Of a stretch of 64,000 nucleotides of DNA, positions 6,326 to 22,211 are shown in pieces. The notes beneath the pieces were generated by a model. That model made no database searches, had not been told where the DNA came from, and was given only the letters and a program-made list of their open reading frames with translations. The DNA lies in the IMG/VR virus record IMGVR_UViG_3300032116_000088, positions 1-64,000 of that record; one strand, 5' to 3'. Origin of the DNA: a virus. The position numbers and the translations under genes are program-made. The stretch's first letter is position 1. Every line of letters begins with the position of its first letter.

Positions 6326-6568
6326 ATGGCAGACGTCCCAACAAATGAAAAGCTTTATGCTATGGTGGTAACACAGGCTAAAGCTAAATACCGCATTTAT
6401 CCTAGCCCAGGTGCCTCGCACTGGGTTCATCGTCGGTATCTTGAACTTGGTGGGAAGTATGTTGATTCTGAAGAAATTGCAGAGCGTAAGAGAATGATTG
6501 CTGCTTGGCGTGAAAGAAAAGCCAAAATTAGAGGTAATCGTGATGAAGACAAGAAGGATAGTAAGTAA
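6326..6568 (+). CDS. Small basic protein, DUF5872-like
   Basis: PTNEKLY...AKAKY..YPS...WV.RRY..LGGKY; resembles ORF 20441..20641. Confidence 0.55.
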   Translation: MADVPTNEKLYAMVVTQAKAKYRIYPSPGASHWVHRRYLELGGKYVDSEEIAERKRMIAAWRERKAKIRGNRDEDKKDSK

Positions 6569-8420: not shown

Positions 8421-9179
8421 ATGGATGAAAACCTAGAGGTAGTAGAATCTACTGAACCAACTATCGACACAGTTTTTTCTGAGGAGGTAACTTTGCAGAA
8501 CCAGTTCACAGCTGAAGATATTGCTAAGGCACGTGCACAGGAAAAGGCAAAGCTTTACCCACAGGTAGAGAAACTGCAAGAAGAACTTGCTGCTCTTAAG
8601 AAAGAGCGCGAGGAGCGTGAAGCCCTAGAGGCTGAGCGTATGGCAAAACGTCAGGCTCGTGAAGCTGAGCGTGCTGCTGAAAAGAAAAAGCAGGAAGAAT
8701 CAGAACTAGAGGTTCGTGAGCTTCTTAGCAAAAAGGAACAAGAATGGGCTGCAAAGCTAGAGGCTGAGCGCCTAGAACGCGAGAAGGCATTTGCCCTTCT
8801 AGAGCGTGAGCGTGAATTCCAGGAGCTATCGGCATACCGCCAACAGCGCCTAGACCAAGAACGCGACAATATCATTCCGGAACTTATTGACCTAATTTCT
8901 GGAAATTCCCGCGATGAAATAGAGCAGAGCATCGCTGGTCTTAAAGAACGTTCTGCGAAAATCTTCGACTCTGTTGCGCAAGTTGCACAGCAAAGTCGCA
9001 AGGAAATGGTGGGAACCCGTATCACGGTTCCTGCTTCTGGACCCCTCGACAACGACTCGGACTCACGTACGTTTTCGCCTGATGACTTGAAAAAGATGTC
9101 AATGGATGAATATGCGAAGAATCGTGCCAAGCTTCTTGGCAATAGCAATAACCGTGGACAGGGATTGTTCGGTAATTAA
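8421..9179 (+). CDS. Capsid scaffolding protein
   Basis: Glu/Arg coiled coil ending MSMDEYAKNRAKL; directly before the capsid gene. Confidence 0.8.
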   Translation: MDENLEVVESTEPTIDTVFSEEVTLQNQFTAEDIAKARAQEKAKLYPQVEKLQEELAALKKEREEREALEAERMAKRQAREAERAAEKKKQEESELEVRELLSKKEQEWAAKLEAERLEREKAFALLEREREFQELSAYRQQRLDQERDNIIPELIDLISGNSRDEIEQSIAGLKERSAKIFDSVAQVAQQSRKEMVGTRITVPASGPLDNDSDSRTFSPDDLKKMSMDEYAKNRAKLLGNSNNRGQGLFGN

Positions 9180-10976: not shown

Positions 10977-12269
10977 ATGGCTACCATTTCTAGCCTTGTT
11001 GACAGAGTTCGTTTAGAGCTCGGTGATATTGGAAAATCCTTTGTAACTAAATTTGTTGCCGATGGTACTACAAATAGATTTAAATTGCATTACGCTCCCC
11101 TAGATGCAACTACAGTAGTTGTGTATGCTGGAACAACGGATATTACTGAAAGCAGTTTTATTGAAGAGTCCACCGGAGTCCTTGTTACTGAAGATGTACT
11201 AGATGACATGACTGAAGTCACTGTCAGTGGTACATACTATCGTTATTTTACCGGAGCTGAATTAAACACTATTGTTAATGACGCTATTTCCCAGCATTGT
11301 TTGGGAAGAGTAGACTCTTTAGGTAGAAAACTTGATTCAACTACTTTACCTTTTGTTGAAGAATACCCTGTAGCTATTTATGCTACAACTATTGCTTTAT
11401 ATACACTAGCCACTGATTCCGCTTTTGATATTGACATTCAAGCTCCAGATGGCGTCACCATTCCTCGTGCAGAGCGTTTCCGTCAGCTTATGGAAATGGT
11501 TCAAACAAGACAACAACAATATAGGGAGCTGTGTGTTCATCTTGGTGTTGGTCTTTACAAAATGGAAGTGTTTACGTTTAGACGTATCTCTAAAGCAACT
11601 GGACGTTACATTCCTGTTTACAAGCCTCAAGAAGTTGACGACCGCTCATACCCAGCAAGAGTTGACGATTCAGCACCAACATACGGAGATAAGCAACCTG
11701 AATGGCCAACTACTGATGTTGAATTAACTGCATATCAAGGTCGTGCATTTAGCACTACTCTTACTTATACTGGAACTTATGCCGGTAAGTCATTTACTGC
11801 TAAACTACTGAACCAACGTGGTTCGGTAGTTGTTGTGCAAAACTTTACGATTAGCATTAATACAGACGGAACAGATGTGATTACCGGTGCTTCCAGAACT
11901 TCTGGAAGTAATGTTATTACTATCACTACTAGTGCAGCCCACGGTTTATCGGTAGGAAATAGCATTGTTATTACAGGAGTTGATTCTACTGTAAATGGTG
12001 TATACACAGTAGCAACTTCCGGGTCTACTACGTTTACTGTAGCCGGTACAGAAACTACAGCACTATCTTTAACTGAATTAACAGGTCAAGTAGAAACAAA
12101 CGTCTCTAAAGCTTATACTTTTATACTCTCATTGACCGCTGACCAGACTCGTCGCATTGCAGAAAGAACCTATTGGTCTTTATCTACAGTAGACGATTTT
12201 ACTGGAGAAGTTATAGAAATTAAGAGCGGAAACTTCTTTACTACACGAGTAAATAAGGCAGTAATATAA
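10977..12269 (+). CDS. Head-tail adaptor / neck protein with an inserted beta-module
   Basis: [12 protein letters not shown]-terminus typical of connectors; [13 protein letters not shown] module near the C-terminus. Confidence 0.65.
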
Positions 12270-12742
12270 TGCCCGGAATACCATTACCAGAAAAAGATAT
12301 AGCTCTTCTTCAGGATACTACCCCTGATGTAATTCCAGCACCTCCAGATTATACGGACTTAAATTTTGGTACCCCTAATGACCAAGCTAACCAAGTAATT
12401 GATACGACTCTTTTACCAGGTGTTCCTGGTCAGCGTGGGCCAGCAGGTCCTGCAGGTCCAGAAGGAGACCCAGGACCTGCTGGACCTGCTGGACCTACAG
12501 GTCCTGCTGGTCCCCAAGGTCCACAAGGTCCTGTCGGACCAACACCGACTATAGCGTATACTCACACGCAAAATGCGGTATCCTCTACTTGGAGCATAAC
12601 TCATAATCTTGGTTTTAGACCAAACGTAACAACTATTAACTCTGCTGGAATGAATATTGAAGGCACTGTTGCGCACACCAACGAAAACTCTTTAACTGTA
12701 ACCTTTAGCATCGCCAGCAGCGGCGTTGCATATTTATCTTAG
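12269..12742 (+). CDS. Collagen-like fibre protein with C-terminal THNLG domain
   Basis: 14 consecutive Gly-X-Y triplets; WSITHNLG. Confidence 0.8.
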
Positions 12743-12750
12743 GAATGTAA

Positions 12751-15369
12751 ATGGCTCGTAGTTTCTTAGTACCTATAAACCTTAATAGCCTTGAGCTTCA
12801 AAATTTTATTGTTCATAACATTGAAAACGACCCTACTGGGGTCGCTGGTAGACTTTACTACAATAGTACTAGTAATGCTTTAAAAGTTTACAATGGTTCT
12901 TCTTGGCTAACTGTAGCTACTGGTGGCAGCACATTTACTCTAGGTAGCACGTCTGTCTCTATTGGTGGAACTACTACAACTGTTAATGGTTTAACTCTGG
13001 GCTCATCTTCCGTATGGAATGGCAATACTATTGCAGTTGCTTATGGTGGTACTGGAACTACTACAGGCTCTATTACTGGCACTGGAGCACTTACATTTAC
13101 GGCTGGTGGTTCTAACAACAACGTTAATCTAAGACCTACTGGTACAGGCTCTGTTGATTTAGGCAGCACCAACGGTAGCGATGGGTTTAGAATTACTGGA
13201 CTTAAAGACCCATCTAGCGACTATGACGCCGCAAACAAAAAGTATGTAGATGGTGTTGCTGCTGGACTTAACGCACACCCTGCGGTTAACTACGCCACTA
13301 CAGGTGCTCTAGGTACTACTGGCAACCTTGTTGGTGGAACTATTACCACCACTTATTCAAATGGAACTAACGGTGATGGTGCAACGCTTACTATTGCTAC
13401 ATCCTCTAACTGGACTGAAATTAAGGTTGACGGTGAGACTGTTACAGTTGGTCACCGTATTCTTATTAAGAACCAAGGTGGTACATCCTCTAACCTACAA
13501 AATGGTATCTATACTGTTACTAGCGTAGGTGCAGTTGGAAACACAACTTCGTTTGTGTTTACCCGTGCTACAGACTCTAACTCAACTCCAGAAGTTGCAG
13601 CAGGTGACACCACCTATGTTCTAGCAGGTACTGTAAATGGTGGAAACGGATTTGTTCAAACCGCTACAATTGTATCTATTGGCACTACAGCAATTGCTTG
13701 GTCTCAGTTCTCTGGTTCTTCTACTACAACAGCTGGTCTTGGTCTTACTCCTAATGGAACTAACCCAAACCAGATTGACGTAAATACAGGTACAGGCTTA
13801 ACTATTTCTAGCGACGCGGTTGCTCTTGCAAATACCGCTGTTACCGCAGGAAGTTATGGTTCTGCAACAGCAGTTGGAACCTTTACTGTTGATGCACAGG
13901 GTAGATTAACTGCAGCTGCAAACACATCTATTGCGGGGCTTAACGCAAGCGTTATTACTGCTGGAACACTTACTGTAGGTGTTGGTGGTACTGGAGCTGG
14001 GTCATTTACTAGCGGAGGTATCCTTAGAGGCAACGGTACTAGCGCTCTCTCAGTAGCTTCCGCTGCTGATATAGTTGCTGCTATTGGTTCGACTGCTGTT
14101 ACTAGCGCAACTACTGCGACTAACGCAACCAACACAGCGATTACTGATGACACTACGACTAACGCAACCATGTACCCTACATGGGTTACTACAACTACAG
14201 GTAACTTGCCTCAAAAAGTTTCATCTACAAAATTAAGTTTTAATCCCTCGACAGGAACACTTACCTCAACCGTATTTAGCGGTTCTGGTGCAAGCCTAAC
14301 ATCACTAAACGCTTCTAACCTATCTTCTGGAACCGTTCCTGGCGACAGAGGTGTTACCGCCGGTTCAACCAGCGCATCATTCGTAGAATATAATGGAACT
14401 ACCGCAACAGCCGGCCAGTTTGATGGTGGAACTACTGCCCCATCTGGAACTACTCGCCTAAACTATGGTGGTTATCTATATGCTACTCAGTTCTATGGTA
14501 ATGGAGCAAACTTAACCTCACTAAGCGGTTCTAGCATTGCATCAGGAACTGTTGGGTTTACCTATCTTCCATCATTGTATATTGGAACTACTACTATCCA
14601 ATCATCATCTGCTACTCAAGCACTAACTGGTATTTCAACAATTACTGGTGGAACTACTCTTGGGCTTCTAGCTCCTTCTAACGCTTCTACAGGTTATGCG
14701 GTATCTCTTACTGGTGGAGCTTCTTCTGGAACTACCGGTCAGACTGGTGGTGCAGTAACTATTACTGGTGGTGCTTCTACTTCTGGCACTAACTTAAACA
14801 CTGGTGGTTCAGTAACTATTACCGGTGGTGCATCCAACACCTCTGCAGGTATTGGTGGTAGCGTCTCCATAAATGGAGGTGCTGGTAGCATAGGAAATGG
14901 TAACGGGGGTATCTCAATTGGTACCGCTAATACTGACTCAATTCTTATTGGTAATGCTGGTGGTGTTGTTTACACTCAAATTACTGGAACTGTAAAACTT
15001 CCTTCAGTTGGAACTTCTGGATTTGTTAAGCTTGGTGCTGGTGGACAGCTTTCTCCTGACACAAACACTTACTTAACCTCAAGCACAGGTGTTACTACTG
15101 TAAACGGCTCTTCTGGAGCTATTGGTGCTACGGCTAACTCTAATGGTGCAATAACTCGTTACTACAGAGCAACTAACTCTGCCGGTCAAACCACAACTAT
15201 TAACCACGCACTAGGTCAGTGGGTTTTAGTTCAGGTATTTAAGACTAGCGATGGAACTATTGCTGATACTGACATCACAAATACTTCTACTAGCGGTGGA
15301 ACCACTACTGTTGGATTCGCAGTTGCACCTGCCAATGCGGGAGACTACACAATCGTAATTATTGGCTAG
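12751..15369 (+). CDS. Fibre protein 1 (Gly/Thr/Ser-rich)
   Basis: DAANKKYVD, RILIKNQ...NGIY, TVDAQGRLT fibre motifs; 872 aa. Confidence 0.8.
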   Translation: MARSFLVPINLNSLELQNFIVHNIENDPTGVAGRLYYNSTSNALKVYNGSSWLTVATGGSTFTLGSTSVSIGGTTTTVNGLTLGSSSVWNGNTIAVAYGGTGTTTGSITGTGALTFTAGGSNNNVNLRPTGTGSVDLGSTNGSDGFRITGLKDPSSDYDAANKKYVDGVAAGLNAHPAVNYATTGALGTTGNLVGGTITTTYSNGTNGDGATLTIATSSNWTEIKVDGETVTVGHRILIKNQGGTSSNLQNGIYTVTSVGAVGNTTSFVFTRATDSNSTPEVAAGDTTYVLAGTVNGGNGFVQTATIVSIGTTAIAWSQFSGSSTTTAGLGLTPNGTNPNQIDVNTGTGLTISSDAVALANTAVTAGSYGSATAVGTFTVDAQGRLTAAANTSIAGLNASVITAGTLTVGVGGTGAGSFTSGGILRGNGTSALSVASAADIVAAIGSTAVTSATTATNATNTAITDDTTTNATMYPTWVTTTTGNLPQKVSSTKLSFNPSTGTLTSTVFSGSGASLTSLNASNLSSGTVPGDRGVTAGSTSASFVEYNGTTATAGQFDGGTTAPSGTTRLNYGGYLYATQFYGNGANLTSLSGSSIASGTVGFTYLPSLYIGTTTIQSSSATQALTGISTITGGTTLGLLAPSNASTGYAVSLTGGASSGTTGQTGGAVTITGGASTSGTNLNTGGSVTITGGASNTSAGIGGSVSINGGAGSIGNGNGGISIGTANTDSILIGNAGGVVYTQITGTVKLPSVGTSGFVKLGAGGQLSPDTNTYLTSSTGVTTVNGSSGAIGATANSNGAITRYYRATNSAGQTTTINHALGQWVLVQVFKTSDGTIADTDITNTSTSGGTTTVGFAVAPANAGDYTIVIIG

Positions 15370-15378
15370 GATTAAACC

Positions 15379-17904
15379 ATGGCTAGAAGTATACTCACTC
15401 CGCTAACTATAACTACTGGTGGAAACACTATAACATCCTCCGCAGCTGCATCAGTGCCTTTGGTACTAAAAGGTGCAGCTAGCCAGTCTGGAAGTTTGCT
15501 GTCTTTTCAGAACGATAGCGGAACCGTTATAGGTAACTTCACCGCTCCAGTTAACAACGTCCCTAGACTAAATCTCGGGTCAACTGATTTAGGTGCAACT
15601 GTAGGTATCAACGGTCACGCAACTGGTGGAGTCACACTAGCTATTAAAGCAATCGCGTCCCAGACCGCCGATATGCAACAGTGGATTAACAGCGGAAACT
15701 CCGTGCTTGCCAAGGTAGACCAAAATGGTTTTGCTGTGTTTGGTGGAGCCACAGTACTTTCTAACTCTGTTCTTTCTGTGTCCCCTTATGGAACTACGCA
15801 AGTAGGATTAACCATAAAGGCCACTAGCGGTCAAAGTGCTAATCTACAAAACTGGCAGGATAGCACACCCACTACAGTTACAAGCATAAACTCCGCTGGC
15901 TTATTCTCTACTACTAGAAACATAACAATTGCTGAGACAAATGCTGGAGAAAACGCGCTTGTTATTCGAGCTGCTTCAAACCACACGGGCTACCTCACTC
16001 TTTGGCAAAACTCTTCTTCTGTAAACGTAGCTGGCATAAACGCCCCAGGTCAAGTATGGACTGGGTCTTCATTGCCAGTTAATGGTTCCACAACTGTTGC
16101 AATCAACACTCAAACTCCAACAGGCACAACAAATATTACAATTACAACTGCCGCAGCCCACGGTATTTCTGTTGGCCAAAACGTTACTATTGCTGGAATT
16201 ACTCCGTCAGGTTACAATGGAAACTGGATTGCTCAGTCTGGAACTACTGGGTCTACCCTTGTAGTAAACATCGGTTCTAACCCCGGAGCTATCACAGTTG
16301 CAGGAACCGTTGCTCAATCCGCTCAAATATCTTCAACCCCTTCATCCACAAACGCTACTGGCTTAGTAATTAAAGCACTAGCAAGCCATGCAGCAAATTT
16401 ATTTGAGGTACAGTCTAGCACCGGCTCAGTTTTAGCCAGAATTGCATCCACCGGTCAGTTCTTAGCTCCTAGCATTGTTGGTAGCGCTTTCCAAATAACT
16501 TCTGGAGGTGTGTTTTCTAATGGCTCTACTTCTGCTCCTGCAAATACACAAGCCTATTTCTTAACTACTGCTGCAACTAACGTGGGTCTTGTTGTTCGCG
16601 GTGCAGCAAGCCAATCCGCCGATACATTCCAAATACAGAACTCCTCGGGCACCGTACTAGCAAAAGTAGACTCTGGTGGAGTTATTTCTACAAGCAGTTT
16701 TTATAACTTTACTAACTCAACAAACGGTATTGCTGTTCAAGGAACTTATGCATTGCGGTTCAATGGAACTTTGTCAAACTTTGGAACTGGAACAGTCACT
16801 GGTACAAAAGTAGCTATAACTAATGACACCGCTGGTAATACAGGTTTGCGTGTTCAGGGTGCAGCAAGCCAAACAGCCAATCTCCAAGAGTGGCAGGACT
16901 CAAGCGGAAACGTTCTTTTAGCTATTACATCAAGCGGAGGAATTGGAACCTCCGGGTTAACCGCAATAAGAATAGACGCTAACAGAAACGTAGCACTTAA
17001 TTCAAACTCTGGTTCATATGGAAATGGTCAAGCAGTTACGTTTATTGGAAATGCCACCACGGCACCAACAGCCAACCCAACTGGCGGTGGAGTTCTTTTT
17101 GTTGAAACAGGCGCTCTAAAGTACCGTGGAACATCTGGCTCTGCTGCAACAATTGTAAATGCTGATGGAACTATGTCGGGTGGTGGTGGCTCATTTACTG
17201 GCGGTACACTAACAAGCAACCTCACTCTAGCTGCTGGAACAACTTCACTTTCACCACTAACATTCCAGTCAGGAACAAACCTGACCACAGTTACTGCTGG
17301 TGCTAACGAGTATGACGGAACGGTTTTCTATCAGACCTCTAACACTAACCCTGGTAGAGCATTAGCAACACAAAACTACTATTACGCTTCTAGTTCCTCT
17401 TGGTTGCCAGATTTCTTTAATTCTGGAAGCGTTCAAGGTATGCTTGGTGGTGCTACAAAAGGCATTACTCTTGCTGCTGGAACTACTTACGAGTATGAAC
17501 TTTATGCAACTGTTCAACATCAGTTTATTTCTAATACTGGTGTCACAGGAACTTATCAAATGGTATCTAGTACAGTTTCTGGTTCTCCTACAGTTGCCGT
17601 AGTTCATCAGGTAGATTATGGTAGCAACACCACAAACTTTACAACTGCAACAACTCTAACCACTGTTAGGACCACAGGAACAGTAGTATTTTCTGCAGCA
17701 ATATCTTCTGGTTCTAGATATAACTTCTTGAGGGCTAAGGGTATAATTAGAGTAACCGGAACAGGAACAGCAAAAGTATATCCGGGAATATCTACATCTC
17801 AAGTTGGAGCGTCTGACAATATTTGGACAGTTCAAGAAGGTTTAGTATTCAAATTAACTCCAATTGGAAATGGTACAGCAACTACTGTAGGAACGTGGGC
17901 ATAA
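15379..17904 (+). CDS. Fibre protein 2 with seven internal repeats; putative receptor-binding protein
   Basis: Repeated (G/A)AASQ(S/T)A.L..WQ.SSG.VL units; 841 aa. Confidence 0.8.
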   Translation: MARSILTPLTITTGGNTITSSAAASVPLVLKGAASQSGSLLSFQNDSGTVIGNFTAPVNNVPRLNLGSTDLGATVGINGHATGGVTLAIKAIASQTADMQQWINSGNSVLAKVDQNGFAVFGGATVLSNSVLSVSPYGTTQVGLTIKATSGQSANLQNWQDSTPTTVTSINSAGLFSTTRNITIAETNAGENALVIRAASNHTGYLTLWQNSSSVNVAGINAPGQVWTGSSLPVNGSTTVAINTQTPTGTTNITITTAAAHGISVGQNVTIAGITPSGYNGNWIAQSGTTGSTLVVNIGSNPGAITVAGTVAQSAQISSTPSSTNATGLVIKALASHAANLFEVQSSTGSVLARIASTGQFLAPSIVGSAFQITSGGVFSNGSTSAPANTQAYFLTTAATNVGLVVRGAASQSADTFQIQNSSGTVLAKVDSGGVISTSSFYNFTNSTNGIAVQGTYALRFNGTLSNFGTGTVTGTKVAITNDTAGNTGLRVQGAASQTANLQEWQDSSGNVLLAITSSGGIGTSGLTAIRIDANRNVALNSNSGSYGNGQAVTFIGNATTAPTANPTGGGVLFVETGALKYRGTSGSAATIVNADGTMSGGGGSFTGGTLTSNLTLAAGTTSLSPLTFQSGTNLTTVTAGANEYDGTVFYQTSNTNPGRALATQNYYYASSSSWLPDFFNSGSVQGMLGGATKGITLAAGTTYEYELYATVQHQFISNTGVTGTYQMVSSTVSGSPTVAVVHQVDYGSNTTNFTTATTLTTVRTTGTVVFSAAISSGSRYNFLRAKGIIRVTGTGTAKVYPGISTSQVGASDNIWTVQEGLVFKLTPIGNGTATTVGTWA

Positions 17905-18050
17905 TGAATGAAATAAAAGAATTACTTGAAACATGGAAAGAAGAAGGATTAGTAAATCCAGACTCTTTAGAAAAGGCTTATGATGCCCTTATTGCGCTTG
18001 TAAATAAGGTTGAAGAGCTTGAAGCTCAAGTTCAGGCTCTTTCAAACTAA
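17904..18050 (+). CDS. 48-aa coiled-coil protein, possible fibre chaperone
   Basis: TAATG-coupled ATG 17904; LVNKVEELEAQVQAL heptads. Confidence 0.55.
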   Translation: MNEIKELLETWKEEGLVNPDSLEKAYDALIALVNKVEELEAQVQALSN

Positions 18051-18089
18051 ATTTGCCCCTACAATTAATATAGAACTTTAGGAGATATC

Positions 18090-19202
18090 GTGGCTTATCC
18101 ATCCGAAATAAAGTCGTTTACTTTTAAACGAAACAACATTGATAAAGTCGTTGCAGACGACGTAAACGTTCTGTATACAGAAGTTACTGCTATTGAACAG
18201 CAACTTGGAGGTGTGGGCTCTGGTGGTATTGGTGTTACAACAAGTACTTGGGGTACAGGTACTTTCAGCACCTCTGTGGCTAACTGGTTTGTAAATGATG
18301 GATTAGCTGCTAGACTAAAAAATATTGAGGCTGGATTATACGCAACCTTAGTTACTGGCTCTGCTTCTGCAGCCAAACTAACTACCCCAATTTCAGTTAA
18401 TGGAACTACTGGAGTAGATTGGTCTTCTTCGTCATATACTTTTACTGCAGCTGCAGGCACTCTAACTGGAACTACACTTAACTCAACTGTAACGGCATCA
18501 AGCCTAACTTCTGTTGGAACGTTAACTAATTTAGTTGTAACAGGCTCATCGGGAACATCGGCACCTATTAAACTATCTTCTGGTACTAATATAGGTACTT
18601 TAGCAGCTGGTGCTATTGAATATGATGGAAACGTCTTTACTTTTATACCAAATACTTCAACTGGTAGAGCAATTACTCCCTCTTCTTATTATTACACTTA
18701 TTACGGAAATTCAGGTGCACTTGGAGGAATTACTTCTCCATATGGTTTTAAACGATTGACTTTGGCTGCAAATACTGCATACGAATATGAAGGTATGTAC
18801 GTTTTTAGTTTTAATGATGCTGCTGATGTGTCCCCAGTAAGCTCTTATCCAATATTTAAGATACAAGGAACAGCAACTATTGCTAATAGTAATATTGACG
18901 TTGTTTTTTGGTGCTCTACTTTAGGGTCACTAACTGCAACATCAGCTAGAAGCATCTCCGAGGTTGTTACTGTAGGAAATACTAATATTAATTTAGAGAA
19001 TACTACAGCCAATACCTCTCTTAGAGTTGGAGTAGTTAAATGGAAAGGCATCTTAAGAAATCAACAAGCTAGTACTGGGACTGTATTTGCAACTATTCTT
19101 GGAAGTGCGGCTGGCTCACAAACAATTCTAAAAGATGGTTCTTTTATAAAACTAACTCCTATTGGAATAGACACTGTAGCAACTGTTGGTGTGTGGACTT
19201 AA
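18090..19202 (+). CDS. Fibre protein 3; C-terminal domain paralogous to fibre 2
   Basis: VVADDVNVLYTEVTAIEQQLG anchor motif; AGAIEYDG...KLTPIG shared with fibre 2. Confidence 0.75.
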   Translation: MAYPSEIKSFTFKRNNIDKVVADDVNVLYTEVTAIEQQLGGVGSGGIGVTTSTWGTGTFSTSVANWFVNDGLAARLKNIEAGLYATLVTGSASAAKLTTPISVNGTTGVDWSSSSYTFTAAAGTLTGTTLNSTVTASSLTSVGTLTNLVVTGSSGTSAPIKLSSGTNIGTLAAGAIEYDGNVFTFIPNTSTGRAITPSSYYYTYYGNSGALGGITSPYGFKRLTLAANTAYEYEGMYVFSFNDAADVSPVSSYPIFKIQGTATIANSNIDVVFWCSTLGSLTATSARSISEVVTVGNTNINLENTTANTSLRVGVVKWKGILRNQQASTGTVFATILGSAAGSQTILKDGSFIKLTPIGIDTVATVGVWT

Positions 19203-19768
19203 TGAGAGGCGCTAAACTTCAAGGAAGGTTTAACCTAGACTACGAAAGTAAGTCTATGTATGAAGGCATAGCCGAGGACCTTGGAGGCACCGTAGGTGTA
19301 GAGGTGGACTGGTTTAGATGGCAAAATTATTACCTAGAAGAAAATTTTGATGATATTGTAGACCCAATTTATGACGTTTCATCTTCAGAGCCTAATAAAG
19401 GTAGAAGATGGATGCTTCCATTTAAAATGCCTGCAGTTATGGCCCAGTTTGTTCGTGGTACCAACGTCATGAACGAACGTGGTTTCTATGTAACTGACAC
19501 ACTTCGCCTAGTTATTAACATTGGCGATGCACAAAGACTTCTTCCAAGTCTAATTACTGATTCAAACAATCATATTAAAGATAGAATTATATATCGTGGA
19601 GAAGTTTTTGTTCCTACACGAGTTCTTCCTCGTGGCTCATTTGGATACAACTTTGCTGTTCTAACTGTAGACTGCAACCAGATGAACCCAGAAGAACTAG
19701 TAAACGACCCGCAATTCCAGACATATGCCTCAGCATCTGTCCCTAATCCTAGGATTAATAATGGCTAA
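19202..19768 (+). CDS. Head closure / stopper-like protein
   Basis: KDRIIYRGEVF motif; neck-region position; TAATG start at 19202. Confidence 0.55.
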   Translation: MRGAKLQGRFNLDYESKSMYEGIAEDLGGTVGVEVDWFRWQNYYLEENFDDIVDPIYDVSSSEPNKGRRWMLPFKMPAVMAQFVRGTNVMNERGFYVTDTLRLVINIGDAQRLLPSLITDSNNHIKDRIIYRGEVFVPTRVLPRGSFGYNFAVLTVDCNQMNPEELVNDPQFQTYASASVPNPRINNG

Positions 19769-19913
19769 AGTAAAATTAAAAAGTATTAAAACTAATGAAC
19801 AAAACCCCAAAGATAATATTGGTAGGGGTGGCAAAGTAGTTATGGAACGCCATAAAGGCAATGTTCCTAAAAAACCACTTAAAATGAAGAATCTTCAGAA
19901 GAGGAGTAAATAA
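19761..19913 (+). CDS. 50-aa Lys-rich micro-protein
   Basis: MAKVKLKSIK...; SD AGGA; coupled to the next gene. Confidence 0.65.
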   Translation: MAKVKLKSIKTNEQNPKDNIGRGGKVVMERHKGNVPKKPLKMKNLQKRSK

Positions 19914-20215
19914 TGACTAGTCACAAGAAAACCCATTCAAAGAAAGACCCACGCTTAGCTCGTGCCGGAGTATCTGGGTATAATAAGCCAAAGCGTACAC
20001 CTGGAGCTAAAAAGTCACACATCGTGGTTGCTAAAGAAGGTGACCAAGTTAAAACTATTAGATTTGGTCAGCAGGGTGTTTCAGGCTCGCCTAAGAAAAA
20101 GGGTGAATCAGAGGCTTACCGTAAGCGCCGTGAGTCCTTTAAGGCTCGTCACGCAAAGAACATTGCCAAGGGCAAAATGTCTGCGGCTTACTGGGCCGAT
20201 AAGGTTAAATGGTAA
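19913..20215 (+). CDS. Basic protein, DUF5754-like
   Basis: KTIRFGQQG...RRESFKARH...SAAYWADKVKW. Confidence 0.65.
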   Translation: MTSHKKTHSKKDPRLARAGVSGYNKPKRTPGAKKSHIVVAKEGDQVKTIRFGQQGVSGSPKKKGESEAYRKRRESFKARHAKNIAKGKMSAAYWADKVKW

Positions 20216-20472
20216 TGCCTAAGATTAGAACTCAAGATGGCGTAGGCCACAAAGTTACCAAAAAGAAAACCGATAAAGGTATTGGTAAAAAGGGTGACAT
20301 TATTGTTGACCACACCTCAAAGCAGGGTGGCAAGTACGATAAAATGAATCTGACCAAGGTTGCTGGGTCTAAAACTGTTAAAGAAGGCGTTAAGGCAACT
20401 CGTAAATGGCACAAAGAAAACCCACAGAAGAAGGCTAAAAATGGCAGCAAAAAAACCAGTAAAAAAGACTAA
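20215..20472 (+). CDS. Lys-rich small protein
   Basis: TAATG-coupled ATG 20215. Confidence 0.7.
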   Translation: MPKIRTQDGVGHKVTKKKTDKGIGKKGDIIVDHTSKQGGKYDKMNLTKVAGSKTVKEGVKATRKWHKENPQKKAKNGSKKTSKKD

Positions 20473-20641
20473 GTCTAAGGTTAACGAAGCTGGCAATTAC
20501 ACCAAGCCAGAACTCCGTAAATCATTATTTAAAAAGATTAAAGCAGGAACTAAAGGTGGAGACCCAGGTGAATGGTCTGCTCGTAAAGCTCAGCTTCTTG
20601 CTAGTGAATATAAGAAGGCTGGCGGAGGCTACAAGAACTAA
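20441..20641 (+). CDS. Basic protein, N-terminal half of a DUF5872-like family
   Basis: YTKPELRK...GTKGGDPGEWSARKAQLLASEYKKAGGGY. Confidence 0.7.
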   Translation: MAAKKPVKKTKSKVNEAGNYTKPELRKSLFKKIKAGTKGGDPGEWSARKAQLLASEYKKAGGGYKN

Positions 20642-20877
20642 TGGCTAAAGCAAGGTCCCAGCAGTCCCTAGATAAGTGGACTAAGGAGAAGTGGAGAACC
20701 TCAGATGGTAAACCATCTAAGGGTAAAAAACGCTATCTTCCTTCTGCTGCTTGGGATGCTTTAACTCCTGCAGAAAAGAAAGCTACTAACAGGGCTAAGG
20801 CTAAAGGAAACAAAAAGGGCAAACAATTTGTAGCCCAGCCAAAGAAAATTGCTAAGAAAGCTGCAAGGTACAGATAA
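20641..20877 (+). CDS. Basic protein, C-terminal half of a DUF5872-like family
   Basis: QQSLDKWTKEKWRT...RYLPSAAW..L...EK...KQFV. Confidence 0.7.
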   Translation: MAKARSQQSLDKWTKEKWRTSDGKPSKGKKRYLPSAAWDALTPAEKKATNRAKAKGNKKGKQFVAQPKKIAKKAARYR

Positions 20878-21158
20878 TGGCAGAGACTAAAAGATTTGGT
20901 CCATATAAAGGCTCTAAAGCCAATGGTGGTCGTCCTATCTACGTTTACAAGACAAAGGGCAAAGATGGTAAATGGCATACTACTTCTAAAAATAAAGCTC
21001 GTGCAGAGTATGAAGAGAAAAATGGAAAATTACCGCGTAATGTAGATGTAGACCATAAAAACAATAAACATGCTGATGACCGTAAATCTAATCTAAGGCC
21101 GTTAAAGCATGGTAAGAACACCGCCAAAGAAAACAGGCGGAGAGCAGGAAAGAAATAA
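20877..21158 (+). CDS. Small HNH-type nuclease
   Basis: DVDHKN...DDRKSNL...H..N. Confidence 0.75.
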   Translation: MAETKRFGPYKGSKANGGRPIYVYKTKGKDGKWHTTSKNKARAEYEEKNGKLPRNVDVDHKNNKHADDRKSNLRPLKHGKNTAKENRRRAGKK

Positions 21159-21325
21159 TGGCTAAAGAAAAAATGTGTTCATGTGGAAAGTGTGCTGCCT
21201 GTAAAGCTCGCATGAAAAAGAAGGGTTCAAAGACTACTAAGCTTGCTGCTATGTACGGCGACAAGAAGAAGGTTACCCGTGGCGATGTGATTACTGCCGC
21301 CAAAATGAAAAAGGGCAAGAAGTAA
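21158..21325 (+). CDS. 55-aa Lys-rich protein with CSCGKCAAC motif (not in ORF track)
   Basis: TAATG overlaps at both ends. Confidence 0.7.
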   Translation: MAKEKMCSCGKCAACKARMKKKGSKTTKLAAMYGDKKKVTRGDVITAAKMKKGKK

Positions 21326-21534
21326 TGGCAAGTAAAAAGAAATCCGTTCCTGGTGAAGGAACCCGGTTTAAAAAGCTAGAAGCTAAACTAGAGAAGTCTG
21401 GTAAAAGCGAAAAGGCTGCTAAGGCTATTGCTGCTGCTATTGGACGTAAAAAGTACGGCTCATCTGATATGGCAAAAGCCTCAGCTGCTGGTCGTAAAGG
21501 TAAAGTTCACCGTATGAAGAAAGGTGGCAAATAA
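21325..21534 (+). CDS. Lys/Ala-rich small protein
   Basis: RFKKLEAKL...AIAAAIGRKKYG; TAATG at both ends. Confidence 0.7.
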   Translation: MASKKKSVPGEGTRFKKLEAKLEKSGKSEKAAKAIAAAIGRKKYGSSDMAKASAAGRKGKVHRMKKGGK

Positions 21535-21593
21535 TGACTGATTGTACTTGCGAAAATTGCCAATGCAGTAAAAAAGAAGAAAACAATGGCTAA
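21534..21593 (+). CDS. 19-aa Cys-rich micropeptide MTDCTCENCQCSKKEENNG (not in ORF track)
   Basis: TAATG start, SD AGAAAGG upstream, overlaps the next start. Confidence 0.5.
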   Translation: MTDCTCENCQCSKKEENNG

Positions 21594-21735
21594 AGAAATT
21601 AAGATTAAAAAAGCTAAAAATACTAAGCTTAAAGTTAAAGCTAATCCTCTAACTAAATCGCATAATGTCGGTAAAGTTAACTCTAAAAAAGCCTCTAAAC
21701 CGGGCAATATGCCCTCTAACTATGGAGTGAAGTAA
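21586..21735 (+). CDS. 49-aa Lys-rich micro-protein (not in ORF track)
   Basis: MAKEIKIKKAKNTKLKVK... Confidence 0.6.
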   Translation: MAKEIKIKKAKNTKLKVKANPLTKSHNVGKVNSKKASKPGNMPSNYGVK

Positions 21736-21737
21736 TT

Positions 21738-21869
21738 ATGGCTAAGAAGTGTGGTTGTGGCGTCTGTCCGGCTTGTAAGGCCTCTAAGAACCCAAATATG
21801 AAGCGTAAGCAAACTCTTACGGTTCGCAATAAGCACAGTAATGCAAAAGCAAGAAAAGGAAGTAAATAA
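21738..21869 (+). CDS. 43-aa basic protein with CGCGVCPAC motif (not in ORF track)
   Basis: SD GGAG; TAATG into the next gene. Confidence 0.65.
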   Translation: MAKKCGCGVCPACKASKNPNMKRKQTLTVRNKHSNAKARKGSK

Positions 21870-22165
21870 TGGCTAAAAAACCATCTTATGAAAAGGGGAA
21901 ATATACCGAATCTAAGGACAAGAAAAAGGATGCAGCAATGCTCCGTAAGGCTGGTCTAACTGAAAAGGATGAGAAGAAGGCTTTTGAAAAGGCTGACAAG
22001 GCTCACGGTGCTAAGAAGAAGCCTAAGACTATGGCTGAAGACAAGAAAATTGATGCCAAGATTATAAAAGGAATTAAGGCTAAAGAAGCCGCTCACGAAA
22101 AGCGTGAGGGTAAAAAGGGCGAAAAGGCCGAAGAGAAGCGTGAAAAGAAGTATAAAAAGAAGTAG
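21869..22165 (+). CDS. Lys/Glu-rich small protein
   Basis: 98 aa; last gene before a terminator. Confidence 0.7.
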   Translation: MAKKPSYEKGKYTESKDKKKDAAMLRKAGLTEKDEKKAFEKADKAHGAKKKPKTMAEDKKIDAKIIKGIKAKEAAHEKREGKKGEKAEEKREKKYKKK

Positions 22166-22184
22166 TTCAACACAAACAAAGTTT

Positions 22185-22211
22185 AGCCAGCGTAATGCTG
22201 GCTTTTCTTTT
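22185..22211 (+). terminator. Intrinsic terminator closing the basic-protein cassette
   Basis: AGCCAGC-GTAAT-GCTGGCT + TTTCTTTT. Confidence 0.85.

Follow-up and report, generated by a model that had tools for sequence, protein, structure and literature searches.

The first 64 kb of the virus record IMGVR_UViG_3300032116_000088 (64,000 nucleotides, hereafter the window) carry an island of twelve micro-genes, P1 to P12, which are chained back-to-back at 19761-22165 on the plus strand. Eleven of the twelve encode strongly lysine-rich proteins. We found that its membership is not fixed at twelve parts: aquatic phages have a common stock of small basic modules, which they swap, split, fuse and permute, and the island draws on it. 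Families widespread in aquatic phages, whose members also turn up independently in unrelated phages, account for P2, the split pair P4|P5, P7 and P8. Moreover, profile and model comparisons indicate homology between P2 and the C-terminal domain found in an XkdF-type prohead protease. The reading that we favor, tentatively and with less than even confidence, is that the island encodes accessory proteins which vary between relatives and associate with DNA inside the head, comparable to the internal proteins of T4 and outside that family. Tiny genes of this kind are usually missed or left 'hypothetical', and P2, P4/P5, P7 and P8 rank among the more widespread and best conserved aquatic-phage proteins.

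A chained island of polycationic micro-proteins

The virus record is complete at 90,667 bp, with direct terminal repeats at its ends, and the phage is a complete 90.7-kb freshwater myophage. Public sequencing runs from freshwater and lake metagenomes contain DNA nearly identical to its genome; none of the runs listed is an RNA run. The island is laid out as follows.

19761-22203, then the downstream flank, plus strand: micro-gene island P1-P12, then the terminator, then D65, D105 and D227
19761..19913, plus strand: P1, 50 aa, 26% Lys, net charge +13, sporadic among relatives
19913..20215, plus strand: P2, 100 aa, phrog_7595, standalone
20215..20472, plus strand: P3, 85 aa, 28% Lys, present in relatives within the lineage
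20441..20641, plus strand: P4, 66 aa, phrog_17747, N-terminal half of a split ~131-aa family
20641..20877, plus strand: P5, 78 aa, phrog_14910, C-terminal half of the P4-P5 family, TAATG-joined to P4
20877..21158, plus strand: P6, 93 aa, Lys-rich HNH_3 endonuclease-motif protein
21158..21325, plus strand: P7, 55 aa, N-terminal CxCGxCxxCK motif and a widespread C-terminal module (residues ~22-55)
21325..21534, plus strand: P8, 69 aa, 26% Lys
21534..21593, plus strand: P9, 19-aa acidic CxCxxCxC peptide
21586..21735, plus strand: P10, 49 aa, 29% Lys
21738..21869, plus strand: P11, 43 aa, CxCGxCxxCK motif protein
21869..22165, plus strand: P12, 98 aa, 35% Lys, 19% Asp+Glu, lineage-specific last island gene and positional anchor
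22185-22203, plus strand: intrinsic terminator-like hairpin (8-bp stem, 5 G-C pairs) with a T-run, closing the operon

All twelve open reading frames (ORFs) that an earlier, sequence-only reading of this stretch had called are present with the same starts. Its eight exact TAATG junctions were confirmed as 1-nt overlaps at the starts of P2, P3, P5, P6, P7, P8, P9 and P12, and two 8-nt ATGGCTAA overlaps can be added, at the starts of P1 (with the upstream gene U191) and P10 (with P9). At the remaining junctions, P4 overlaps P3 by 32 nt and P11 begins 2 nt past P10. Every start is preceded by a purine-rich string resembling a Shine-Dalgarno sequence, partly built, as had been claimed, from the final Lys, Gly and Arg codons of the preceding gene. 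TAATG-type junctions account for 8/12 in the island compared with 14/115 in the rest of the genome. Six of the 11 genome copies of ATGGCTAA lie inside the island, concentrated at gene junctions, and 6 of the 15 genome copies of TAATGGC stand at island gene junctions. This clustering could be a by-product of selection for MA(K) starts, or the motifs could provide microhomology for gene shuffling.

The composition of the island proteins agrees with the earlier description of all but the 19-aa peptide as very Lys-rich. Lysine makes up 20-35% of eleven proteins and 11% of P9, against a median of 5.6% for the other proteins of the 90.7-kb genome, whose 90th percentile is 10.7% and whose highest value is 15.6%. 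Each of the eleven Lys-rich proteins has an isoelectric point (pI) of 9.9-11 and a net charge of +13 to +21, and all twelve proteins are very hydrophilic (grand average of hydropathy, GRAVY, -0.8 to -1.8). Because the GC content of the island (40.7%) equals that of the genome (40.9%), the island is not DNA of foreign composition. One full protein set carries a net charge of +178, and therefore ~100 sets would offset ~10% of the genome charge. Neutralization of DNA charge is a plausible consequence of these proteins and may or may not be their purpose. The single terminator that had been proposed to close the unit is also there: the hairpin and T-run at 22185-22203 rank top among the terminator-like sites in the ~13 kb scanned (10.5-23.6 kb). 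Since P1 is coupled to U191 and this strongest terminator follows P12, the island forms the 3' end of a late structural operon.

The micro-genes are conserved as coding sequences. In-frame conservation in relatives, a check that the earlier reading had named, holds for the small ORFs, the 19-aa P9 included, in six relatives found via the sheath protein and in many more found via P12. The ratio of nonsynonymous to synonymous substitution (dN/dS, NG86) is 0.03-0.27 for the ten ORFs that could be scored (P1-P6, P8, P9, P11 and P12), with 0.03 for P6 and 0.23 for P1, the latter from one pair; P7 and P10 yielded no usable pairs. The flanking genes U191 and D227 gave 0.12 and 0.16. All of these figures are rough because dS is saturated. 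In distant relatives, where the flanks U191 and D227 are 33-38% identical, P4 is 88%, P5 83%, P12 67-77% and P3 53-78% identical, and island proteins overall are 53-92% identical where the structural flanks drop to 33-38%. On these comparisons, the micro-proteins are either far more constrained than the structural genes or horizontally exchanged, and both readings argue against fast arms-race evolution. Such strong conservation would fit an invariant ligand such as DNA.

Exchange of small basic modules among aquatic phages

Membership of the island varies widely within the lineage. We surveyed 80 viral contigs chosen for a relative of P12, so that the presence of P12 is built in. Within 3 kb of that relative lie D227 in 74/80, the tail sheath gene in 69/80 and U191 in 56/80. 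A same-site island is found in 53 related contigs with both flanks, where the interval from U191 to D227 measures 915-3,910 bp (3,024 bp here) and holds between 1 and 8 Lys-rich small ORFs. A P12-like gene is retained in 53/53 islands of this P12-selected set. The other members are distributed as a mosaic among the P12-selected loci, with P6 in 21/80, P3 in 22/80, P4/P5 in 15/80 and P2 in 12/80. Fusions, permutations and gene order also differ between relatives; for example, the order is P10-P9-P11 in contigs L007 and L005 versus P9-P10-P11 in the window. Sister islands carry additional families, among them DUF6321 and another HNH. In 57 distinct islands, 1-nt overlaps make up half of the junctions and MAK is the commonest start, and the polycationic composition is uniform across unrelated families, here and in the islands of relatives.

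Module shuffling takes place within genes as well (contigs L005, L006 and L009). At L009:4767-5048 and L006:4977-5261 a single gene joins the CxCGxCxxCK motif to a P12-like domain, and the modules of P7 are permuted at L005:1182-1364, with the Cys motif at the C-terminus.

The HNH nuclease that had been recognized within the cassette is P6. It scores 27.8 bits against Pfam HNH_3 (PF13392; residues 44-81), above the curated cut-off of 24.8, and its DH..N...N..H string contains the H...N...H core, so that at the level of motifs P6 is a predicted HNH endonuclease. P6 is sporadic among the surveyed loci yet 60-97% identical where it is present, and the copy in contig L023 is 97% identical compared with 72% for U191. 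The HNH genes may be among the drivers of the mosaic structure of the island. Two relatives have a second, larger HNH gene where the island ends downstream (L006:5319-5705 and L009:5323-5697), and the window is without it. The L006 copy matches PF01844 and has Zn-ribbon-like cysteines.

P2 has spread widely among aquatic phages. It is a full-length member of phrog_7595 (E 3e-39), with catalogued function unknown, and occurs at at least 600 IMG/VR loci, with 70-88% identity across unrelated phages. P2 is standalone in 73 of 80 loci, and its alignment over 61 phages has 26 invariant columns. Homologues are present in cultured phages of Rhodobacteraceae, SAR116, Vibrio, Synechococcus and Prochlorococcus; the range spans alpha-, beta- and gammaproteobacterial and cyanobacterial phages and includes podo-, sipho- and myophages. 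Within reference prokaryote genomes, P2 was found only on contigs from metagenome-assembled genomes (MAGs) or bins, assigned to many phyla including Archaea and the Candidate Phyla Radiation (CPR), none of them titled as a cultured isolate. We read these as binned phage contigs.

P2 also forms the C-terminal domain of 1,808 longer proteins, again at 70-88% identity. Its fusion partners include cytidylyltransferases, P-loop/zeta-toxin kinases, protein kinases, InPase, and DUF5661, DUF6496 and DUF5872 segments, and the majority of the long fusions have partners without a recognized family. Among the fusions, P0024 joins InPase, P2 and a kinase, and P0088 joins a cytidylyltransferase, a zeta toxin, DUF5872 and P2.

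P4 and P5 illustrate splitting and fusion. They are full-length members of phrog_17747 (E 8e-35) and phrog_14910 (E 6e-37), respectively, both with catalogued functions unknown, and are the two halves of one ~131-aa protein; of 60 distinct loci, 9 encode this protein fused and 51 split, and 31 of the 51 splits fall at a TAATG overlap. The pair adjoins P2 in ~23 of 80 loci, in either order, and homologues of P4 and P5 extend to Methylophilales phages and pelagiphages. Among the cultured phages that carry P2, P4 or P5 homologues are CRP-9 (gp67-69), CRP-1, Lentibacter phage ICBM2 (gp31), Celeribacter phage P12053L (gp37), the cyanophages KBS-S-2A (CPKG_00042) and S-CBS2 (gp046), HMO-2011 and pelagiphage HTVC033P. 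Neither P4 nor P5 matched Pfam DUF5872 (PF19197) at E <= 0.1, and the P4-P5 profile aligned to the DUF5872-bearing P0088 with an hhalign probability of 1.8%, a resemblance at motif level only. The literature that we searched mentions DUF6321, DUF5661 and DUF6496 nowhere and DUF5872 only in one gene list.

A chain of such modules may be seen in Syn9 gp114 (T4-GC119; L418:27877-29208), a basic 443-aa protein (18% Lys, net +56) encoded between terminase subunit genes. It resembles a string of a DUF6321 segment and, by eye, DUF5872-like segments, which are separate micro-genes in the islands. Its DUF6321 module is also present in the DUF6321 protein of sister islands, which matches gp114. A direct link to the window was rejected, as no window protein matches gp114 with composition correction. 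In cyanomyoviruses, T4-GC119 has been described as hypothetical, with its gene in a cassette that is flanked by endonucleases and possibly mobile (PMC3037559).

Other members are common in IMG/VR, with 268 relatives of P8, 154 of P7 and 109 of P12. P3, P7, P8 and P12 had no match in deposited phage genomes, a result to which the BLAST low-complexity filter may contribute. A protein atlas search returned unnamed viral clusters only, and 11 of the 12 island proteins have no family in Pfam.

A proposed place in the head interior and competing explanations

The link between P2 and the phage head comes from homology and from gene neighborhood. A search of predicted viral structures (BFVD) with the P2 model retrieved ICP1 ORF125 (Foldseek probability 1.0, template modeling (TM) score 0.55) and a second, XkdF-annotated protein. 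The P2 profile aligned to residues 188-260 of ICP1 ORF125 (hhalign probability 85.5%, E 5.6e-6), downstream of a Pfam Peptidase_S78_2 domain at residues 35-159. P2 and this domain are ~33% identical and have the motifs GYNKP, AK.GD.V..IRFG, F.AR and S..YW...W in common. The gene lies in the capsid operon:

L417:9709-10545, minus strand: ICP1 ORF125 gene

Its product, Gp125, is a putative capsid maturation protease (PMC8096241, PMC9040626). P2 shares the C-terminal domain of this XkdF-type protease but is without Peptidase_S78_2. The ICP1 literature that we searched gives no description of the C-terminal P2-like domain of Gp125, and we found no study on the function of this domain in XkdF proteases. 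The neighborhood of P2 points the same way. The nearest large ORFs in 80 viral loci are mainly head genes, namely the head closure protein Hc3 17 times, portal families 10 times, major head proteins six times and adaptors four times; dNMP kinase (5), terminase (2) and endolysin/holin (2) make up other neighbors. In the cyanosiphoviruses KBS-S-2A and MED4-184, P2 lies just upstream of apparent scaffold and coat genes. Gene neighborhood and protease homology thus tie the P2 domain to the head indirectly, and linkage and fusion would extend this indirect tie to P4/P5.

Two known systems offer precedents, and the sequence-only reading, which knew of no described function for such a cassette, overlooked both: the hypervariable set of T-even internal proteins (PMC3012670) and the polyvalent proteins (PMC5512222). 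T-even internal proteins are small, basic and made late, differ greatly as a set between related phages, and are ejected with the DNA; ~1,000 molecules of internal protein are embedded in the packaged DNA of T4, where their lysines contact phosphates (PMC3012670). The island resembles IPI, IPII, IPIII and their variants in being a variable set of small Lys-rich late proteins, and no sequence homology between the two was found. Unlike the island proteins, which share only MA(K), T4 internal proteins have an N-terminal capsid-targeting sequence that is cut by the prohead protease. In addition, T4 internal proteins evolve fast as anti-restriction factors, whereas the island proteins evolve more slowly than their structural neighbors. 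Polyvalent proteins are predicted to be packaged and injected, and InPase and zeta-type kinases are among their modules (PMC5512222). The likeness here concerns P2 only, through its fusions with InPase, zeta-toxin/AAA kinase, protein kinase and cytidylyltransferase and its head-gene neighborhood. A polyvalent protein holds 2-15 disparate domains in one polypeptide; the window instead has 12 separate ORFs, with the HNH motif as the sole enzymatic domain. By analogy, translational chaining would give co-expression akin to that of a single polypeptide.

We therefore favor, with the reservation given above, an island of head-interior accessory proteins. The proteins would be made late alongside the structural proteins and then enter the head, with P2 using the domain that an XkdF-type prohead protease and many enzyme 'cargo' proteins have at their C-terminus. 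Once inside, the island proteins would lie with their lysines against the packaged DNA. The proteins may then exit with the DNA at infection, and might function like T4 internal proteins or like an unfused polyvalent protein. If the island proteins are indeed head-interior partners of DNA, they bear on the packing, protection and delivery of phage DNA, and the idea of internal proteins would extend from T4 to much of the aquatic virosphere. A domain common to a prohead protease and many enzyme fusions could also serve generally as a capsid-loading tag, with possible use in bringing cargo into phage heads.

Several results weigh against a place for the island proteins inside the head. Homology to a head protein is limited to P2, and the other eleven are tied to the head by position and composition alone. 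None of the twelve has an [LI]xE site in its first 25 residues, MA(K) being the only shared leader, and the prohead protease families PF14550 and PF04586 were not found in the complete genome, in searches whose controls worked. (PF03420 was not detected either, in a search whose control also failed to register.) In sioviruses and HMO-2011-type phages, P2, P4 and P5 sit beside lysis genes or at operon ends, outside head modules. The head-type labels that P2 fusions receive from PHROG ('minor head / virion structural / DarB / endolysin') all stem from the InPase module of one protein and were set aside, as were the phrog_220 matches, which cover the P2-like segment only. The models of P2 (predicted local distance difference test (pLDDT) 79.5, beta-hairpin and helices) and of the P4-P5 unit (pLDDT 82.8) are both globular, and fold searches found no solved relative for either: Foldseek gave a best E of 1.2 and VIA a best Z of 2.2 for P2, and a best E of 2.4 and a best Z of 4.2 (a helical hairpin only) for P4-P5. 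Neither model matches a solved DNA-binding fold. The comparison with histone- or protamine-like DNA binders covered these two models by fold and all twelve proteins by Pfam, in which 11 have no family. A literature search for virion proteomics of homologues, including the cobavirus paper and S-CBS2, found none.

The absence of a detected targeting signal and prohead protease also favors a different reading, in which the island proteins stay unpackaged in the cytoplasm and act late on nucleic acids as abundant small polycations. They would coat or compact replicated phage DNA ahead of packaging, or attach to the nucleoid, ribosomes or RNA of the host. A nucleic-acid ligand that does not change would be in keeping with their extreme basicity and slow evolution, and the operon-end or near-lysis position in several podophages needs no virion incorporation. 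The P2 profile is, in addition, weakly similar to uL24 (E 0.19-0.54). However, neither this PDB match nor one to a baseplate protein (E 0.079) is significant, and the P2 model consists of a beta-hairpin and helices only. Since the P2 domain is common to a prohead protease, has head-rich neighbors and recurs in polyvalent-type fusions, we consider unpackaged binders somewhat unlikely. It is more doubtful still that P2 is a portable head-interior or DNA-anchoring tag with which aquatic phages load kinases, proteases, nucleotidyltransferases and further cargo into capsids. On that reading the island would amount to a polyvalent protein in unfused form, an exchangeable, translationally chained polycation cocktail travelling with the genome and acting on DNA in the head and in the new host cell. 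The sequence-only reading had gone further and proposed a genome-condensing core, which in its strict version is an integrated, stoichiometric 12-component polycationic system dedicated to condensing the packaged genome. Its foundation is sound, in that the coupled, late-operon polycation genes are real and P2 has an indirect link to the head; the tight translational chaining with a single terminator, the +178 per set and the lysine-phosphate contacts of T4 would all suit such a core. The dedicated stoichiometric system itself found no support. Same-site relatives have 1-8 Lys-rich ORFs with differing membership, order and fusions, members occur singly in unrelated phages, and one member is an HNH-motif protein and another an acidic 19-mer. 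Because membership varies, a fixed 12-part condensing machine is unlikely, and we rate the strict version as quite improbable.

The same variability raises the question of whether most of the island is selfish or neutral cargo, small mobile genes without a common function that have gathered at a recombination hot spot created by HNH homing endonucleases. The HNH gene inside the island, the larger one that ends the island in L006 and L009 (PF01844), the sporadic occurrence of P6 despite its high similarity, and the mosaic content all fit this picture; the recurrent TAATGGC/ATGGCTAA junction motifs could act as microhomology, and the endonuclease-flanked cassette of T4-GC119 is a parallel. Against it, every testable member is under purifying selection, the polycationic composition is uniform over unrelated families, the P12 anchor is kept in all 53 of the P12-selected relatives, and P2 retains its invariant columns. 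We regard this explanation as improbable. Finally, the island proteins could assist lysis as cationic peptides, breaking up the outer membrane when infection ends, in the manner of the phiKT disruptin, a known cationic lysis peptide (bioRxiv 10.1101/515445). Homologues of P2, P4 and P5 do adjoin endolysin or spanin genes in CRP-9, CRP-1 and ICBM2. Yet all twelve proteins are very hydrophilic, P2 and P4-P5 are modelled as globular domains, the neighbors of the island in the window gave structural matches or none and include no identified lysis gene, and head genes far outnumber lysis genes among the neighbors of P2. A role in lysis is thus highly improbable, and head-interior accessory proteins remain the reading that we prefer.

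Flanking genes and short cysteine motifs

Head and tail genes surround the island at some distance in the window.

4129, plus strand: large terminase
6568, plus strand: portal
8421-9179, plus strand: acidic 252-aa protein, between portal and major head protein
9218, plus strand: major head protein
12269-19202, plus strand: collagen-like and fibre-like proteins
19193..19768, plus strand: U191, 191-aa acidic conserved protein with no assigned family, the upstream island boundary, whose homologues flank the islands of relatives
23502, plus strand: tail sheath
25476, plus strand: tail tube

The island had been placed between neck and tail genes. The sheath and tube genes do follow it; its direct neighbors, U191, D65, D105 and D227, could be assigned to no known family. 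Because these four have no match in PHROG, Pfam or PDB, 'between neck and tail' is a positional guess only. A BurrH match of U191 in the PDB search contained zero passing stretches and was treated as an artefact, and PDB searches with D227 and P6 found no relatives. The acidic protein at 8421-9179 (pI 4.9, net charge -13) had no match in PHROG or Pfam and is probably a scaffold. Upstream, a basic 80-aa ORF at 6326-6568 (plus strand) is joined to the portal gene by TAATG. It matches the canonical N-terminal half of DUF5872 in the polyvalent-type P0088 (BLASTP E 2e-7 over 55 aa, in a single comparison); as a paralogue of P4 it was ruled out by the P4-P5 profile (hhalign probability 0.6%).

The island also contains three short four-Cys motifs, namely CxCxxCxC in P9 (21534-21593) and CxCGxCxxCK in P7 (21158-21200) and P11 (21738-21780). 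From their sequence, P9 and these motifs could be zinc knuckles or a leader peptide. P9 is conserved in L005, L007, L008 and L009, immediately 5' of a Cys-motif (P11/P7-like) or P12-like gene, and in L005, L007 and L009 the gene that follows the P9-like peptide is the one with the Cys motif.

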